A program made the translations under genes and the position numbers. From sequence record MN850566.1: a DNA stretch of 64,000 nt; one strand, written 5' to 3'. Within the stretch, counting starts at the first letter, position 1. Every line of letters starts with the position of its first letter. Shown here one piece after another: positions 407 to 55,299 of this stretch. This stretch comes from Escherichia phage garuso. Under the pieces are notes generated by a model that worked only from the letters and a program-made list of their open reading frames with translations, was not told the origin of the DNA and made no database searches.

Positions 407-772
407 ATGAAGTGGCTAGAGGAAGCTTTTAAAAATAATATTGGTGCAATTGTAGTTGGTATTTTTAGTGTTATTGGGATGTATACCACTATGCAAGTTT
501 CAAGTGGTAAGCAAGAAGTGTCTGTCACAACAAAGTTACAGCAGCTAGATAATTATTCCAAAAGTAACTATTCAGCTATTCGTGATTTACAGTCTGACAT
601 GAGACTGATTCAGCTAGGGATGGAGAACCAGAAAGTTCAGTTAGAGAATGTTAAGGGTGAAAACGCAAAACTTACTAAAACCCTTGATAAATTCTCTGAC
701 AGTGTGAATAATCTGGCTCAATCGGTATCAGCCCTCCAAGCTATTACTGAGAAGAATACAAAAGAACACTGA
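407..772 (+). CDS. hypothetical membrane-anchored coiled-coil protein
   Basis: 121 aa; N-terminal hydrophobic segment (IGAIVVGIFSVIGMY) then heptad-rich region; followed by terminator. Confidence 0.45.
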   Translation: MKWLEEAFKNNIGAIVVGIFSVIGMYTTMQVSSGKQEVSVTTKLQQLDNYSKSNYSAIRDLQSDMRLIQLGMENQKVQLENVKGENAKLTKTLDKFSDSVNNLAQSVSALQAITEKNTKEH

Positions 773-7433: not shown

Positions 7434-7715
7434 CTACGTCAATAACTTGAACATCACCAGCAACATCAACTTATGAATGATGCTTTCCACAGTGTAAGTC
7501 CAACCATCAATGCGAACCAACTCACCTTCTCGTGGGACGATTGGGTTACGTTGAGCTACCGTTGTAGTAGAGTGAACAACATCATAACAATAGATATAGT
7601 TTACTAGGACTTCCATCGTGAAACCCTCACTCAATAACCGTAGTGTGTGATTGACCATTTTTGCCATAGCTATAAGATGTTGTTGTTTGGGAGTTTGGAC
7701 ATCTGACAACAACAA
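7434..7715 (-). CDS. hypothetical protein
   Basis: 93 aa ORF; 5' end overlaps next ORF so true start may be internal. Confidence 0.3.
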   Translation of the reverse strand: MLLSDVQTPKQQHLIAMAKMVNHTLRLLSEGFTMEVLVNYIYCYDVVHSTTTVAQRNPIVPREGELVRIDGWTYTVESIIHKLMLLVMFKLLT

Positions 7716-7863
7716 TATCTCTGCTTATAGCATCACCATGTAACTTGTATACTCTGCAATCTTGCATCTCTGGTGGGAGGCTGTAAGAAGCATTTTTATC
7801 TTCATAAGAAGGGTTGCAGCCAGATAGAAAAATAACACCAAGCGCAATTACTGATTTCCACAT
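7627..7863 (-). CDS. putative lipoprotein
   Basis: Lipobox VIFLSGC after hydrophobic stretch; start set at internal Met of ORF 7627-7887. Confidence 0.45.
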   Translation of the reverse strand: MWKSVIALGVIFLSGCNPSYEDKNASYSLPPEMQDCRVYKLHGDAISRDIVVVRCPNSQTTTSYSYGKNGQSHTTVIE

Positions 7864-9915: not shown

Positions 9916-12054
9916 ATAGATACCATTCTTAGCCTTCTTACGTCCTTTGCTAATCTCATGAAGAAGATTCTCATCCTGAGTAGCTCGACAAGTCAAGATG
10001 TCCTGCTCATCATTCAAGTTAAAGTAAATACTATTCAGTGTATGTGCATCAGTCCCTGAATAGACAACGTACAGGTCATTCTCAGAGTCATAGTGAAGGT
10101 ACTTATCAATCTCTGGGTTGAGATACTCATCGAAGTGTTTGCAGTAATAGCGTCCATCTTCTTGACGAGTAAACTCAATCTCTTCTTTACCTTGCGTTAC
10201 CGCTTTGGTGAACTCTTTATCACCCATAAAGTTACAAAGGAGAACTAGCTGGGCTGAGTTCATATCAACGGAGACTACGTTGGTTCCCTCTTCGCAAATC
10301 CACACCTCCCTCATAGGCGCTCCATAGACAGCAGCACCAGACGGTACGTTTACAATACCATATTGTGTCATACGTCCAGTTGAAGTGCCAAACACCATTG
10401 CACCAGCACTAAGGCGACCATCAGGACGAATCTGGTTCAACCAACCTTTTTCATCATCCTTTGAGTTCTCAATAGTTCTGCGTCGGTGCATCAAAGTATA
10501 GTACTTAGCAATCTTCTGTCCAAGCTCACCTTCAATCGTATCATAAGATGATTCAGTAAGTTTTGGTGAAGTACGGATTAAGCAAGGTTCAAGCAAATCT
10601 GTGTATTTCTTCACAGACCAGTTATGCTCGATGTACTGTACACCTTCATGTTCAACATAACTCAAACCACACCGCTCAACCATTTCCTGCCACTTAGGAT
10701 GCTTTGTAATCATCTTTTTATTGTCTTTGAAACGACAAACTTTGATAGGGCGACCATCTGAGTCTTTCTTGTAATTCCAGTCATCTGGAATCCAACCAAC
10801 TGATTTCAAGTAGTCTTTAACAACTGCTACCTGAGTCATACGAGAAACTTCAAACTCAATTGGTGTATATGGTGCATCAATCAAACCTGTGTAGCGACTT
10901 GACTCAAGTTCAAAGTGATTGACAACGTGACTGTTATAGTACTTCACAGTCTTGACTGTTTTTACTGGTTTCCAGTCTTTGCATTTTTTGCCAATCTTTG
11001 CATTCAACTCGTTGCAGATTGCACGAGCATCCTTCATCGCTACAAAACCCTCTTTGTACTCTTCACCAGTTACAGAGTTGGTTGGTGTATAGCAATTCCT
11101 TTTTTCAATGTTAAAAATCTTTGTAGTTGGCTTACCAAATGGTTTGATTTCATAAGTCTGCATCTCACCATTACGTACCTGCTGACGATACTTTGTCTTA
11201 GGGTACTTGGTAATTCTCTTCAGTCCATCTGCATGACCAAATGTTTCAACATACTCATTCCAAGCTTTTGCAAACTCTTCTCCAGTCACTTTACCTTTGG
11301 TCTTAATAGTTGGAGGTAGATGTGGTTCAACCTCTGAAGCAAGCTCATTAGTCAACTTGTCAAGTTCCTTTACATGGAACTCCATAAGCTCCTTATCAGC
11401 TTTCCAACCATTGATAGCTTGCTGGCTCATCCAGAAAGATGTCTCTTTAGCTCGCATGTAAGTCTCATAAGTGTCTATACCACACTTCTTAAGCTTGAGA
11501 TACTCGTTATCAAGTGCCCGTTTAGTTTTGGCATTAATACGGATATCTTCTACAACACGAGTGAAGATTTCTGCATTCCACACACCCCAATGTTCAATCT
11601 CTGGTTTACGGACACCGACACGAGCACCCCATGCAGCCAAACCATGAGCACCTTTATAACCCTTTGGGGTTGGCCTATCCATCCACTGAACACGAGACTG
11701 GATAAGAGAATCCTGAAAGAAATTACTCCACGGCTTACATTTTGGATTATCAAAGTTCCATAAATCAGGCGCAATGTGATTGAAAACCCACCAGTCATAG
11801 CCGAGACCATTATGGATGCAAAGACGTTTTGCCTTTAACGCAAATTCAACACCTTCACGTAAGCCGCCCTTGATGTACTTAGTGTACTTGTGACCGAGGA
11901 TAGGTTCATCTGTAAAGACCCATACAGGTGGCTCTTCATCATCAGATTTATAGTCTGCGAAAGCCATTACGTGCACTTTAGTGAACTCAAGGAGTAAACC
12001 ATCAGTTTCTGTATCACCAACCAAATGTAAGTTTTTAAAATCTACGTTTTCCAT
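9916..12054 (-). CDS. DNA polymerase (family A), 5' exon with 3'-5' exonuclease domain
   Basis: Exo I motif DTETDGL; motif A region DMNSAQL; ends in motif B ...RKKAKNGIY; start set at Met with GAGGGAG SD (ORF track 9871-12084). Confidence 0.8.
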
Positions 12055-38287: not shown

Positions 38288-38836
38288 ATGAAGAAATTGA
38301 TTCTAGGTTTGTGCTTAATGTTTACAGCACACTTATCTTATGCAGTTGACTGCCCAGAGCTATCAATTAGCCAAAAAGTAAACATGTTAAAAGCTTACCA
38401 GTATGGTGAGAATAACATGGGTAAAGGTTGGGGTATCACTCTAGCTGCTATAGCCTTACAAGAGTCAGAGTTAGGTCTGAAGGTAGAGAATAAAAAGACA
38501 CATGATTATGGTATCTTCCAGAATCACTTGAAGACTGTTGTAAAGCGTAACAAAATTAGTCCTAATGTGGCTAAAAAGAAACTCTTAAAAGACTTTGACT
38601 ATGCTGCGAAGGAAACTCACAAAGAGCTTGAGTTTTGGACAAAGGTGCATGGTCAGCCAAAGTCAAAGAAGACTTTACAAAAAGTTTTAGCATCATATAA
38701 TGCTGGGTATTCGTACAAAATCCCTAAAGCTAAGAAATATTCTCAAGATGTCTATAACAACATGAAAGTCATTGCTCAATGTGAATTTGCAATAAACATT
38801 TCTAAGGTAAACCATGAAAAAATTAAAAAAGTCTGA
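38288..38836 (+). CDS. putative secreted lytic transglycosylase (SLT-like)
   Basis: Signal peptide MKKLILGLCLMFTAHLSYA; SLT-like motifs ALQESELG, YGIFQ, YNAGYSY. Confidence 0.5.
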   Translation: MKKLILGLCLMFTAHLSYAVDCPELSISQKVNMLKAYQYGENNMGKGWGITLAAIALQESELGLKVENKKTHDYGIFQNHLKTVVKRNKISPNVAKKKLLKDFDYAAKETHKELEFWTKVHGQPKSKKTLQKVLASYNAGYSYKIPKAKKYSQDVYNNMKVIAQCEFAINISKVNHEKIKKV

Positions 38837-39519: not shown

Positions 39520-39984
39520 ATGAACAATATCATTACGGTAGCACTGGACGTTACGGCAAACAAATCTGAAGTAGTTCGTAACATTATCAAGAACAACTTT
39601 GAGGGTAAAATCTTTCGTGCTGTCAACGTAAAAGCAGACGGTAACATCAGAGAGTATCGTGCTCTTTTGAATGTTAAGAAACACGTCAAAGGTGCTGGTT
39701 CAACGACTGCACACAAAGAAAACCTGATGACTATCTATGATATGGGTATGGCTTCAGAGTTAGGTGCTGAAGGTATCGTTAAAGAAGGTGCTCCGTATCG
39801 CTCTTTCAATCTGGAAACTGCTCTCATGCTTTCCTTTACAAGTGGTTCTAAAACAACTACTTATCTCTTTACTGATGCTGCAACGGTATCTGCTATCAAG
39901 GATAACGCTATCAAAGCTGGGGTAGCTGCTGCTGCAAAAGCTTCTTCGATGGCTGCAAATGTCCTTGCTAAAGTCCTCGGTTAA
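39520..39984 (+). CDS. hypothetical protein
   Basis: 154 aa ORF. Confidence 0.5.
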   Translation: MNNIITVALDVTANKSEVVRNIIKNNFEGKIFRAVNVKADGNIREYRALLNVKKHVKGAGSTTAHKENLMTIYDMGMASELGAEGIVKEGAPYRSFNLETALMLSFTSGSKTTTYLFTDAATVSAIKDNAIKAGVAAAAKASSMAANVLAKVLG

Positions 39985-39996
39985 GGTTAAGATACA

Positions 39997-40019
39997 GGCT
40001 CCTTCGGGAGCCTTTTTCA
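39997..40019 (+). terminator. rho-independent terminator
   Basis: GGCTCC-TTCG-GGAGCC followed by TTTTT. Confidence 0.6.
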
Positions 40020-40036: not shown

Positions 40037-40384
40037 ATGACATTTAAAGAGTTCTGTCAAGCTACTTTCATAATTGTTTTCTTAGTTGGGGCAGGTGTCT
40101 GGGGAGGATACTCTTACAGAGACTATCAAGTTGCTGAAACTGAGCTAAACAATCAAAAGCTCATAAGTGTTGCTAAAGATGCTTATCAGGAAGGATTAGT
40201 AACATTGAGCACCAATTACAAAAATGATTTGAAGGATGTGCTTGCTAAGAATAAGCATACAAAAGAGGTACTAACATATGAAAAAACTAAGCCAGAGTTT
40301 TATAATGTTTGTGTTACTGATAACTATGTCAGGGTGTTCAACGAACAAAGTGAGCAGTACATTCAAAAACTCCCAAGTAAGTGA
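40037..40384 (+). CDS. putative i-spanin-like protein (N-terminal TM)
   Basis: 115 aa; N-terminal TM FIIVFLVGAGVWGG then helical periplasmic part; overlaps lipoprotein ORF in another frame. Confidence 0.35.
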   Translation: MTFKEFCQATFIIVFLVGAGVWGGYSYRDYQVAETELNNQKLISVAKDAYQEGLVTLSTNYKNDLKDVLAKNKHTKEVLTYEKTKPEFYNVCVTDNYVRVFNEQSEQYIQKLPSK

Positions 40385-40547
40385 GAGTGATAAGTACACT
40401 CAAGAAGAATCACGGTATATCATCAAAGGCAACACAGGCAGTGATGTAGCAGCAGCCCTTGAGTTCTATCGTGACGGCTTTTACCAGTGCACAATCAAAG
40501 CTAACAACCTTATTGACATGATTTTATTAGGGAATAAGCAGCAATGA
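40278..40547 (+). CDS. putative o-spanin-like lipoprotein
   Basis: Lipobox LITMSGC; embedded/overlapping arrangement typical of Rz/Rz1. Confidence 0.35.
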   Translation: MKKLSQSFIMFVLLITMSGCSTNKVSSTFKNSQVSESDKYTQEESRYIIKGNTGSDVAAALEFYRDGFYQCTIKANNLIDMILLGNKQQ

Positions 40548-40813
40548 CAGAGAATGAAGATACTTTCTATGTAGAAGGTTACTTACTGTTACCACGACCA
40601 AAAGAAACTTATATGCGAATTGACTTCATACCAACCATTATGGATAATGTGATGTGTCATATCTTTATGCAAGGTGTCACAGCACAGCTTAAGCATGTCG
40701 GTAAAGACTGCAAAATAAAGGTTGACACTCATCCAGAAATCAAAGAGAATCACTACACATGGTTCTTACCAGACTCTAAAGAAATCTTAGCAGTTCTCAA
40801 AACGAGGAAGTAA
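40544..40813 (+). CDS. hypothetical protein
   Basis: 89 aa ORF. Confidence 0.45.
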   Translation: MTENEDTFYVEGYLLLPRPKETYMRIDFIPTIMDNVMCHIFMQGVTAQLKHVGKDCKIKVDTHPEIKENHYTWFLPDSKEILAVLKTRK

Positions 40814-40815
40814 CT

Positions 40816-41142
40816 ATGCAGATTAATGGAAGAGACTTTGTAGCCGTTTACTACGAGAAAGGTAAAGAGGTTGGTGTAGCACAAGTAACTTATGGCAATG
40901 GTAAGTGGCTGTATGGAACAATCGCAGTAGTAGGAACAAGAAGTGATACAAAAACTTTTAAAGATTGTGTTGACCTTCTTGAAGAATCCATCCACAATCA
41001 TTGGTGTCTGATATGGATGACTGACAATGAAGTGATGGAACGTTTCAAAAAGATTGATATCAACATAGACAGCATTGAGCATGTTGACTTGTATGAACTG
41101 ACTGAGAAGGTAAATTATGAAAGTAATTCTAGCCAGAGATAA
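40816..41142 (+). CDS. hypothetical protein
   Basis: 108 aa ORF. Confidence 0.45.
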   Translation: MQINGRDFVAVYYEKGKEVGVAQVTYGNGKWLYGTIAVVGTRSDTKTFKDCVDLLEESIHNHWCLIWMTDNEVMERFKKIDINIDSIEHVDLYELTEKVNYESNSSQR

Positions 41143-41344
41143 AAAGACACGGAAAATTATCCGGTCAGCAGTATTTATTGGAAGAAATGAAGTGATTCCT
41201 TTTACAGCAAATGATGTGATAGTCTACAGGAAAAAATTAGCATTCAGTTATTGCTTACGTGGCTTTATCTCCCAGCCATTAGAAGATTTTAAAAATCGTT
41301 GTGGTAAAGGCATCATCATTCAAGAGGCAATTATTCATGGCTGA
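41117..41344 (+). CDS. hypothetical protein
   Basis: 75 aa ORF. Confidence 0.4.
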   Translation: MKVILARDKKTRKIIRSAVFIGRNEVIPFTANDVIVYRKKLAFSYCLRGFISQPLEDFKNRCGKGIIIQEAIIHG

Positions 41345-41537
41345 CTTCTGCAAAGACTGTGCTATCGAGATGTTTGGACGTGATACAGGTGATTTAAAAG
41401 GTCTTATCACTGAAGATGACTTTAAAGCTGGCTATGCAATGCCAGTAATCTGTGAAGGTTGTGGGTGCATCTGGGTAGACCATGAGGGGCAACGTGTAAA
41501 ACCTTCAGAAGATAAAGAATCTTGGGAGAGATGTTAA
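41337..41537 (+). CDS. hypothetical Cys-rich protein
   Basis: CKDC...CEGCGC; start at internal Met of ORF 41301-41537. Confidence 0.4.
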   Translation: MADFCKDCAIEMFGRDTGDLKGLITEDDFKAGYAMPVICEGCGCIWVDHEGQRVKPSEDKESWERC

Positions 41538-42323
41538 ATGGGTATTGTAAAAATCATCAATGGTGATATCTTTGCTGCATTTGATAAAGGTAAGTTTGAC
41601 ATCATTGGTCATGGTTGTAACTGTATGAACCTAATGGGTGCAGGTATCGCTGATAAGATTTCTAAACTTTACCCAAAAGCATATGAGACCGATACAGAAG
41701 TTTATCTATATGCAGGCGGTATAGGCCACAAACCCTGTGAAAATTTACTAGGTAACTTCTCTGTAGCACGTTTAAAACAAGGCCGTATAGCTAACCTTTA
41801 CACTCAGCTTAAGACTGGTAAAGATGCCCGATACAGTGCTTTAGAGTCATCTTTGAAACAGCTTAACAGATACTGTGAAGTCAATCAGTTGAAGAAAGTC
41901 GGGTTACCTATGATTGGTGCAGGTATCGGTGGGCTAGACGCTCAAGCCGTCACAGTTATCATTAATCAGGTGATGAAGAGTGTAGATGTGTATCTGTATG
42001 TCTATGAAGGAGAGATGTACCACAAGTTACGCTCAGGTTGGAAGAACTACTGTGAACCAGAATACTTTGCAGGTGTAGTAACGTTCACAGACAATACAGT
42101 TACCCTCTTCAGACGAAGAAAAGGTAAGATACATCAAAGTAACCCTCCGGTTGAAAAGATGTCTCTAAGTAACGCTCTAGTTACCCACCTGTCGAAGAGC
42201 AATCACAGGATTGCAGTAACATTTGGTAGTGATGCAGACACTTATATCTATGCAAGAACTGATGAGGGTATCGAGACAGTTTTCTCTTCGCCAGAAGTTA
42301 CCTTCTTAGACGCAAAGAACTAA
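41538..42323 (+). CDS. macro-domain protein (putative ADP-ribose binding/hydrolase)
   Basis: N-terminal IVKIINGDIFAAFDKGKFDIIGHGCNCMNLMGAGIADKI and PMIGAGIGGLD fit macro-domain glycine-rich motifs. Confidence 0.55.
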   Translation: MGIVKIINGDIFAAFDKGKFDIIGHGCNCMNLMGAGIADKISKLYPKAYETDTEVYLYAGGIGHKPCENLLGNFSVARLKQGRIANLYTQLKTGKDARYSALESSLKQLNRYCEVNQLKKVGLPMIGAGIGGLDAQAVTVIINQVMKSVDVYLYVYEGEMYHKLRSGWKNYCEPEYFAGVVTFTDNTVTLFRRRKGKIHQSNPPVEKMSLSNALVTHLSKSNHRIAVTFGSDADTYIYARTDEGIETVFSSPEVTFLDAKN

Positions 42324-42389
42324 GAAACTCTGTAGAGTATTCACAATAAACTAAGCCTTTCTTATCTGGTAAATTTTTCAGGTAAGGAG

Positions 42390-42600
42390 GGCTTTTTCAT
42401 TTCAGAATTGTGCAGGTATATTTCTATAGAGAAATCTGTAGAGGAAATTTTGAACTCCAAAGAGAAAATTCATTTTCAAACTGTGCAGGTAATCTCCAAA
42501 GGGTTTTTTCATTTTCAAAACGTGCAGAGAAAAATCAGGTCGGGCAAGAAAAATCATTTTAGAATTGTGCAGGTAGGTGGGTGCAGGTGGGGATGTCGCC
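42390..42600 (+). repeat. array of four or five direct repeats TTTCATTTTCA(A/G)AA(C/T)TGTGCAGGTA (iteron-like)
   Basis: Copies near 42395, 42466, 42504, 42553 (last followed by GGTGGGTGCAGGTGG) in a 490 bp ORF-free region. Confidence 0.55.
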
Positions 42601-54834: not shown

Positions 54835-55299
54835 TTACTTTGGATATACACTGTCAAGATAAATGTCAGCTTCCATTCTACGTCTGTTTTTCAGGCCGTT
54901 TGAAGTGACCTTCTTACCTTTCACTGTAACCTTGTTCCACCACTGCATAGCTTCTGCACAACCTACCTTATTACCAGCATTGTGGCGCTTGATAAATGTA
55001 GAATCCTGCATAGCTGTGATGCCGATGTTGTATGTTTCACTTACAAGTGCATCAAACTCGTTCTGAGAAGTTGGAACCTTGATGGCTTTGTTCACTGCTG
55101 CAACGAACTTTTCAACATCTGCAAGAAGATACTGTTCAGCTTGTTCAGCGGTAATCTTCATACCCATCTTAACAGGCTTCCCACCAATACGAATTGTCCC
55201 ATACCCGATTGTAGGGATTCCGGCAGAGTCTTCGTAAGCCTCTAACTTCAGACCTTCGAAGAACTTAATAGCATCTAAACCTTTTCTTGAGAGTTGCAT
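54835..55299 (-). CDS. endolysin, GH24 lysozyme
   Basis: 154 aa; GLKLEAYEDSAGIPTIGYGT matches catalytic region of phage lysozymes (T4 E / lambdoid family). Confidence 0.8.
   Translation of the reverse strand: MQLSRKGLDAIKFFEGLKLEAYEDSAGIPTIGYGTIRIGGKPVKMGMKITAEQAEQYLLADVEKFVAAVNKAIKVPTSQNEFDALVSETYNIGITAMQDSTFIKRHNAGNKVGCAEAMQWWNKVTVKGKKVTSNGLKNRRRMEADIYLDSVYPK

Follow-up and report, generated by a model that had tools for sequence, protein, structure and literature searches.

A pair of overlapping genes at positions 40,037 to 40,547 of the window, the 64,000-nt stretch of Escherichia phage garuso DNA that was analysed (record MN850566.1), very probably encodes a two-component spanin of 'overlapped' architecture, the spanin of a Felix O1-like phage; we put the probability of this reading at about 0.86. 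This region of the window shares 97% identity with Escherichia phages humlepung and adrianh and 95% with Salmonella phage Felix O1, and it matched 257 phage records, nearly all of them from Felixounavirus and its relatives. By these sequence matches the source phage is placed in Felixounavirus, as a Felix O1-like myophage. The two genes are annotated as i-spanin and o-spanin in many GenBank relatives, and the Felix O1 RefSeq record labels ORF6 'Rz-like spanin'. Moreover, Felix01, FO1a and UAB_phi87, together with phiEa104 and PhiEa21-4, are catalogued as carrying overlapped two-component spanins (Kongari et al., 2018; PMC6139136). Given this listing, the GenBank annotation and the Whichard, Moogle and Mushroom papers taken up below, the spanin pair and the scattered lysis genes of Felix O1-like phages are already described, as is the 'puzzle' posed by the location of the pair.

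The preliminary description of this DNA had proposed two ORFs overlapping in different frames, and both are present exactly as it gave them. The i-spanin gene (40037-40384, plus strand) starts with ATG, encodes 115 residues and belongs to family phrog_1152; the o-spanin gene (40278-40547, plus strand) encodes an 89-residue prolipoprotein with a lipobox and belongs to phrog_4180. We examined the pair by the membership criteria for two-component spanins (Summer 2007; Kongari 2018), under which the genes are adjacent with the i-spanin first and are embedded, overlapped or separated. Here they are overlapped: the o-spanin frame is +1 relative to the i-spanin frame, 107 nt (40278-40384) are common to both ORFs, and the o-spanin gene extends 163 nt beyond the end of the i-spanin gene. 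The final, conserved third of the i-spanin is encoded in the shared segment, as are the o-spanin signal peptide and its lipobox. An AGGAG lies 8 nt 5' of the i-spanin ATG, and the o-spanin has its own Shine-Dalgarno sequence, a GAGG 9 nt 5' of its ATG. The genomic setting of the pair is the rIIA-rIIB-Vs.1-like-PNK arm, where a single gene separates it from the upstream gene for polynucleotide kinase (order PNK-ORF5-i-spanin-o-spanin). On the 3' side, the stop codon of the o-spanin gene shares an ATGA (40544-40547) with the start codon of the ORF that follows. From 40037 to 42323 the ORFs are closely packed, with terminator-like hairpins at 39996-40013 and 42353-42394 on either side. This overlap and the close packing between hairpins suggest that everything from the spanins to a macro-domain gene described below is transcribed as a single unit.

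The i-spanin has the features predicted for a type II inner-membrane protein. It contains a single hydrophobic segment, at residues 6-24 (Kyte-Doolittle 19-residue mean of 1.75), which provides the one N-terminal transmembrane domain (TMD). The charges flanking this segment (N-flank net 0, or +1 counting the free amino terminus; C-flank net -2) favour a predicted N-in/C-out topology, which would leave a periplasmic part of 91 residues that includes the conserved Cys92. Over its entire length the protein matches the 'Rz-like spanin' profile phrog_1152 (E=1.1e-41, residues 1-115 on profile positions 2-124 of 127). An AlphaFold2 model built from a shallow alignment is all-helical (helices 39-59, 65-80 and 84-111), at low confidence (mean pLDDT 51.9). 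Thus the N-terminal transmembrane segment that had been claimed for the first ORF holds, while the helical periplasmic domain claimed with it stands only as this low-confidence prediction.

The second ORF had been described as a lipoprotein with the lipobox LITMSGC, and a PROSITE PS51257-style rule recognises it as such, with the lipid-bearing cysteine at Cys20. Its N-terminus reads MKKLSQSFIMFVLLITMSG-C20-S21, with the lipobox TMSG|C: lysines at positions 2 and 3 are followed by a hydrophobic core and then by MFVLLITMSG-C20, with Ser at +2. When the rule was applied to all ATG-started candidate ORFs of at least 40 residues in the six frames of the window, it was satisfied by 2 of 641, the o-spanin among them, so that its signal is not the chance product of an alternative frame. 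Under the E. coli Lol '+2 rule', Ser at +2 specifies sorting to the outer membrane, and the o-spanin is therefore predicted to be an outer-membrane lipoprotein; an SPII signal with a lipobox cysteine and a +2 residue other than Asp is what is expected of an o-spanin. The mature part comprises 70 residues, contains no proline and carries the conserved Cys71. The mature Rz1 of lambda has 40 residues and is proline-rich, a difference that counts against the spanin reading. Also on that side of the ledger, the family that the o-spanin matches best here, phrog_4180 (E=2e-50), bears no function label; a weak match to the 'Rz-like spanin' family phrog_456 (3e-4) was seen in addition. The AlphaFold2 model of the o-spanin contains some helix, again from a shallow alignment and at low confidence (pLDDT 46). 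The C-terminal end of the protein (...LLGNKQQ) is polar and offers no C-terminal TMD of the kind found in a unimolecular spanin (T1 gp11 type).

Another way to read this locus would be to take only the first ORF as real, its product being a holin, an antiholin or another membrane protein, and to regard the lipoprotein ORF as a chance open frame. The handling of the second gene in the records and in the literature fits such a view, as the Felix O1 RefSeq calls it (ORF7) a 'hypothetical protein', some relatives leave the o-spanin unannotated or start it past the signal peptide, and the published RT-PCR left ORF7 out. We collected the 511-nt unit from the window and from IMG/VR relatives, 27 distinct sequences in all, and determined nucleotide diversity by codon position. 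In the part coding for the i-spanin only, diversity in the first frame was 0.082, 0.057 and 0.230 at positions 1, 2 and 3, and in the part coding for the o-spanin only, diversity in the second frame was 0.085, 0.054 and 0.326. Within the 107-nt overlap it was low and flat across the three positions, at 0.045-0.062 in either frame. Furthermore, 3' of the overlap the changes in the second frame were predominantly synonymous (303 versus 99 non-synonymous). Purifying selection acts on both frames, and the overlap is doubly constrained. The relaxation of third positions in each frame together with the low, flat diversity of the overlap shows that the lipoprotein ORF is not a chance frame; added to its own ribosome-binding site, to the rarity of the lipobox signal in the window and to its retention in all of the relatives described next, down to 27% identity, this leaves the one-gene reading with practically no credence in our view.

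The relatives were assembled by a pattern search of viral contigs that yielded 39 loci. In every one of these the lipoprotein ORF overlaps the 3' end of an ORF of 114-131 residues by 107-149 nt, the upstream ORF has an N-terminal hydrophobic segment, the o-spanin lipobox and Cys71 are kept, and the residue at +2 after the lipobox cysteine is Ser. The strict form of the lipobox rule recognised 38 of the 39; the remaining locus (L045) has a canonical LSAC. Among the conserved loci are those of Kolesnikvirus (Erwinia and Salmonella phages) and Kuravirus (phiEco32-like podophages), whose proteins have only 27-33% (i-spanin) and 27-36% (o-spanin) identity to those of the window. Invariant across Felixounavirus, Kolesnikvirus and Kuravirus are Cys92 of the i-spanin, Cys20 and Cys71 of the o-spanin and the C-terminal i-spanin motif EK..F.N.C...Y...FN, and a C-terminal o-spanin motif, LE[FYW][YW][RQ]D.[FY]..C...N.L, is conserved across the lineages as well. 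Each protein thus has one periplasmic cysteine (Cys92 and Cys71) available for predicted intermolecular disulfides, in keeping with conserved periplasmic cysteines being a general feature of spanins (Kongari et al., 2018; PMC6139136).

Comparison with known spanins places the pair closest to its own phage group. The genes are the same as ORF6 and ORF7 of Felix O1 and their counterparts in FO1a, UAB_Phi87, Mushroom, Moogle and humlepung, the i-spanin protein being 95-100% identical. Positions, the 107-nt overlap, the lipobox and the upstream neighbours (rIIA, rIIB, Vs.1-like, PNK and ORF5) are shared with Felix O1, and the differences consist of strain-level substitutions and of a downstream ORF9, which is missing from the window and likewise from humlepung. 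The preliminary description had assigned the pair the Rz/Rz1 architecture. This stands as far as a TMD protein and a lipoprotein encoded by overlapping genes are concerned; the arrangement, however, is 'overlapped' as in lysB/lysC of P2, and not 'embedded' as in lambda. The lysB and lysC genes of P2 belong to a lysis cassette. As in the window, the P2 o-spanin gene begins inside the 3' portion of its i-spanin partner, in the +1 frame, and continues past it; one product is a type II inner-membrane protein, the other an outer-membrane lipoprotein (PMC6139136). The likeness is one of architecture; LysB and LysC fall into other PHROG families than the window pair, which moreover lies outside a lysis cassette. 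With Rz/Rz1 of lambda the pair shares, by prediction, topology and mechanism: an inner-membrane-anchored protein (helical here in the low-confidence model), an outer-membrane lipoprotein in the +1 frame and periplasmic cysteines for disulfides, whereas Rz1 is wholly embedded in Rz within a contiguous S-R-Rz/Rz1 cassette and the window genes are overlapped and dispersed. Searches of Pfam, including its Rz (Phage_lysis) and Rz1 models, returned no family at E<=0.01 for either protein, and the pair should therefore be regarded as an analogue of Rz/Rz1 rather than as a member of those sequence families. Neither protein matched any family in NCBIfam or PADLOC at cut-off, and sequence searches of the PDB found no relative of either.

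In its dispersed location the pair resembles PseT.3/PseT.2 of T4, whose spanin genes are also far from the endolysin and holin genes. Each pair lies within one gene of PNK (alc-pseT.3-pseT.2-pseT.1-pseT in T4, PNK-ORF5-i-spanin-o-spanin in the window), and the o-spanin of the window is closer in style to PseT.2, which is larger and has predicted structure, than to Rz1 with its short proline-rich peptide. The T4 genes differ in having the 'separated' architecture with a 4-nt junction in place of a 107-nt overlap, and their products in having no periplasmic cysteine (PseT.3) or two (PseT.2), as against one each in the window pair (PMC6139136). BLASTP gave no alignment between the i-spanin and its T4 counterpart and, for the o-spanin, aligned the signal peptide only (E=0.04), so homology to PseT.3/PseT.2 was rejected. 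Since there is no sequence similarity to the T4 spanins, the shared PNK neighbourhood is a positional parallel and not one shown to be ancestral.

The other lysis genes of the window are far from the pair. A GH24 (T4-lysozyme-type) endolysin is encoded at 54835-55299 (PF00959, E=7e-41; phrog_7 endolysin, E=2e-57). It had been described as about 15 kb away on the opposite strand, which agrees with what we find: it lies on the minus strand, 14,288 nt (14.3 kb) from the end of the pair. A putative holin gene (407-772, plus strand) is located 39 kb from the pair on the side opposite the endolysin. It encodes 121 residues with one N-terminal TMD followed by a long helical, probably coiled-coil C-terminal part, its family (phrog_4038) carries no function label, and an ORF at the equivalent place in phage adrianh is annotated 'holin'; the assignment in this phage group is putative, drawing on the annotation of relatives and on the single-TMD topology.

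The distance to the endolysin had left two possibilities, dispersed lysis genes or another envelope-related role for the pair. Dispersal is supported by the annotation of GenBank relatives and by published accounts of Felix O1-like phages. Holin-lysin cassettes are absent from Felix O1, which has been likened to T4 in this respect (Whichard et al., 2010; PMC3185647); the Moogle genome announcement describes Felix O1-like lysis genes as scattered, as in T4, with no cassette (PMC4319497); and the Mushroom announcement uses the term 'T4-like lysis system' (PMC4392139). Expression timing, which had been named as a check on the spanin assignment, points the same way, with the published Felix O1 RT-PCR placing ORF6 (the i-spanin) and ORF35 (the lysin) in one class, both maximal at 25 min (PMC3185647, Table 3); this timing is coarse, and it covers ORF6 and leaves out ORF7, the o-spanin. 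No useful Felixounavirus RNA-seq data turned up in a search of the literature.

Two further proteins with predicted export signals are encoded in the window. A second predicted lipoprotein of 78 residues (7627-7863, minus strand; MWKSVIALGVIFLSG-C16-N) belongs to phrog_902, a family of unlabelled function, and was rejected as a spanin, since its C-terminus lacks a TMD and no TMD-bearing ORF accompanies it; it may instead be an envelope lipoprotein or one of the exclusion type. This is the only other ORF of the window with a lipobox, and no second spanin was found in the window or beside the Kuravirus endolysin. The ORF at 38288-38836 (plus strand) encodes a protein with a Sec signal (MKKLILGLCLMFTAHLSYA|VD) and an SLT-like lytic transglycosylase motif, LQESELG. 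Its match to PF01464 (E=0.0012) is below the cut-off, its homolog in humlepung is annotated 'putative lysin', and its closest homolog is reported to be Vs.1 of Aeromonas phage Aeh1 (Whichard et al., 2010). Given its position 1.2 kb upstream of the spanins and in the same orientation, its product may be a second, exported muralytic enzyme.

The setting of the pair has recurrent features in other lineages. In Felixounavirus, Kolesnikvirus and Kuravirus alike the pair lies outside a lysis cassette, among genes of early or middle type, which counts against the spanin reading. The Kuravirus EcoN5 has adjacent holin and endolysin genes (10929-11668) and carries the pair on the opposite strand, at a distance of about 19 kb, in the replication arm. 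Directly 5' of the pair in the window, a terminator scan detected a GC-rich tetraloop hairpin with a T-run (39996-40013, plus strand), ending 23 nt before the i-spanin start; this, too, counts against a spanin. Hairpins recur at a like position, about 20-24 nt 5' of the start, in Kolesnikvirus, Kuravirus and contig L038 (approximately 2245-2262 in L039, 2230-2247 in L041 and 2199-2217 in L038), with stem sequences and upstream genes that differ between the lineages. Comparison of upstream regions showed that the hairpin is absent from L031, L035, L044 and L046. A weak sigma70-like promoter (39965-39993, TTGCTA-17-TAAGAT) extends to the hairpin's 5' foot, and Moogle- and SUSP1-like loci have TAATAT or TATTAT as variants of it. 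This arrangement of promoter and hairpin suggests that expression of the spanin genes is insulated or attenuated.

On the 3' side, a gene for a macro-domain (ADP-ribose-binding, PF01661) protein is found in the three lineages, immediately next to the pair in Kuravirus (L006 2858-3379) and Kolesnikvirus (L007 2995-3777) and past four small ORFs in the window (41538-42323, plus strand). This suggests that the spanins and the macro-domain gene form a conserved module, the functional link between them not being obvious. Read together, hairpin, i-spanin, overlapping o-spanin and macro-domain gene would make up a separate module outside the cassette, in the early/middle arm of all three lineages. 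That such a placement reflects a second, pre-lytic role of the spanins (for example in superinfection exclusion), or their early loading into the envelope with the hairpin limiting expression, is a proposal that we consider highly improbable.

The same observations could be taken to mean that the pair is an envelope-spanning complex with no role in lysis, acting instead in superinfection exclusion, in a block to DNA entry or in pre-lytic remodelling of the envelope, in which case disruption of the outer membrane would fall to something else. What speaks for this is the location of the pair among early/middle-type genes outside any cassette in three lineages, even in EcoN5 with its distant holin and endolysin on the other strand, as well as the macro-domain protein that accompanies it and the unlabelled PHROG of the o-spanin. 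In addition, our literature search found no experimental report on this spanin family, neither a knockout nor a complementation test in lambda Rz/Rz1 amber mutants having turned up for the Felix O1-type proteins. Yet distance from the lysis genes is no obstacle to spanin function, since pseT.3 and pseT.2 of T4 are not near t and e and nonetheless complement lambda Rz/Rz1 (PMC6139136). A TMD protein and an outer-membrane lipoprotein encoded by overlapping genes, with periplasmic cysteines, are moreover the diagnostic signature of spanins (PMC6139136), and the i-spanin transcript peaks in the class of the lysin. PADLOC gave no matches. As no other spanin candidate was found in the window or beside the Kuravirus endolysin, a phage of Gram-negative bacteria with this GH24 endolysin would otherwise be left with no function for disrupting the outer membrane. 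We consider a role outside lysis highly improbable on these grounds.

If the pair is a two-component spanin, its action can be outlined by analogy with lambda and T4. The 115-residue i-spanin would reside in the inner membrane with its N-terminus in and its C-terminus out, exposing a mostly helical periplasmic domain of 91 residues. The 89-residue o-spanin would be exported, lipidated at Cys20 and cleaved by signal peptidase II, and the Lol system would then sort it to the inner leaflet of the outer membrane. The periplasmic domains of the two proteins would bind each other across the peptidoglycan meshwork, and disulfide-linked dimers may form via Cys92 and Cys71. Once the candidate holin had allowed the GH24 endolysin to degrade the murein, the spanin complexes would be freed and would fuse the inner and outer membranes, completing lysis.

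Felix O1-type phages are used in Salmonella typing and in biocontrol, and the spanin assignment in them is bioinformatic. As a catalogued spanin of a well-studied phage genus, the pair has little discovery value. Its o-spanin gene, however, is misannotated in public records. In humlepung (L001 5327-5548) the annotated start is too far downstream, so that the signal peptide is lost wholly or mostly; in the RefSeq record of the Kuravirus EcoN5 (L006 2766-2939) a downstream start removes both signal peptide and lipobox; in Erwinia phage Rouille (L007 2712-2987) the gene is unannotated; and in the Felix O1 RefSeq (L002 5279-5548) it is labelled 'hypothetical protein'. The practical value of the analysis lies in annotation, since the correct o-spanin gene model follows from its conserved lipobox and from the signature of dual coding.
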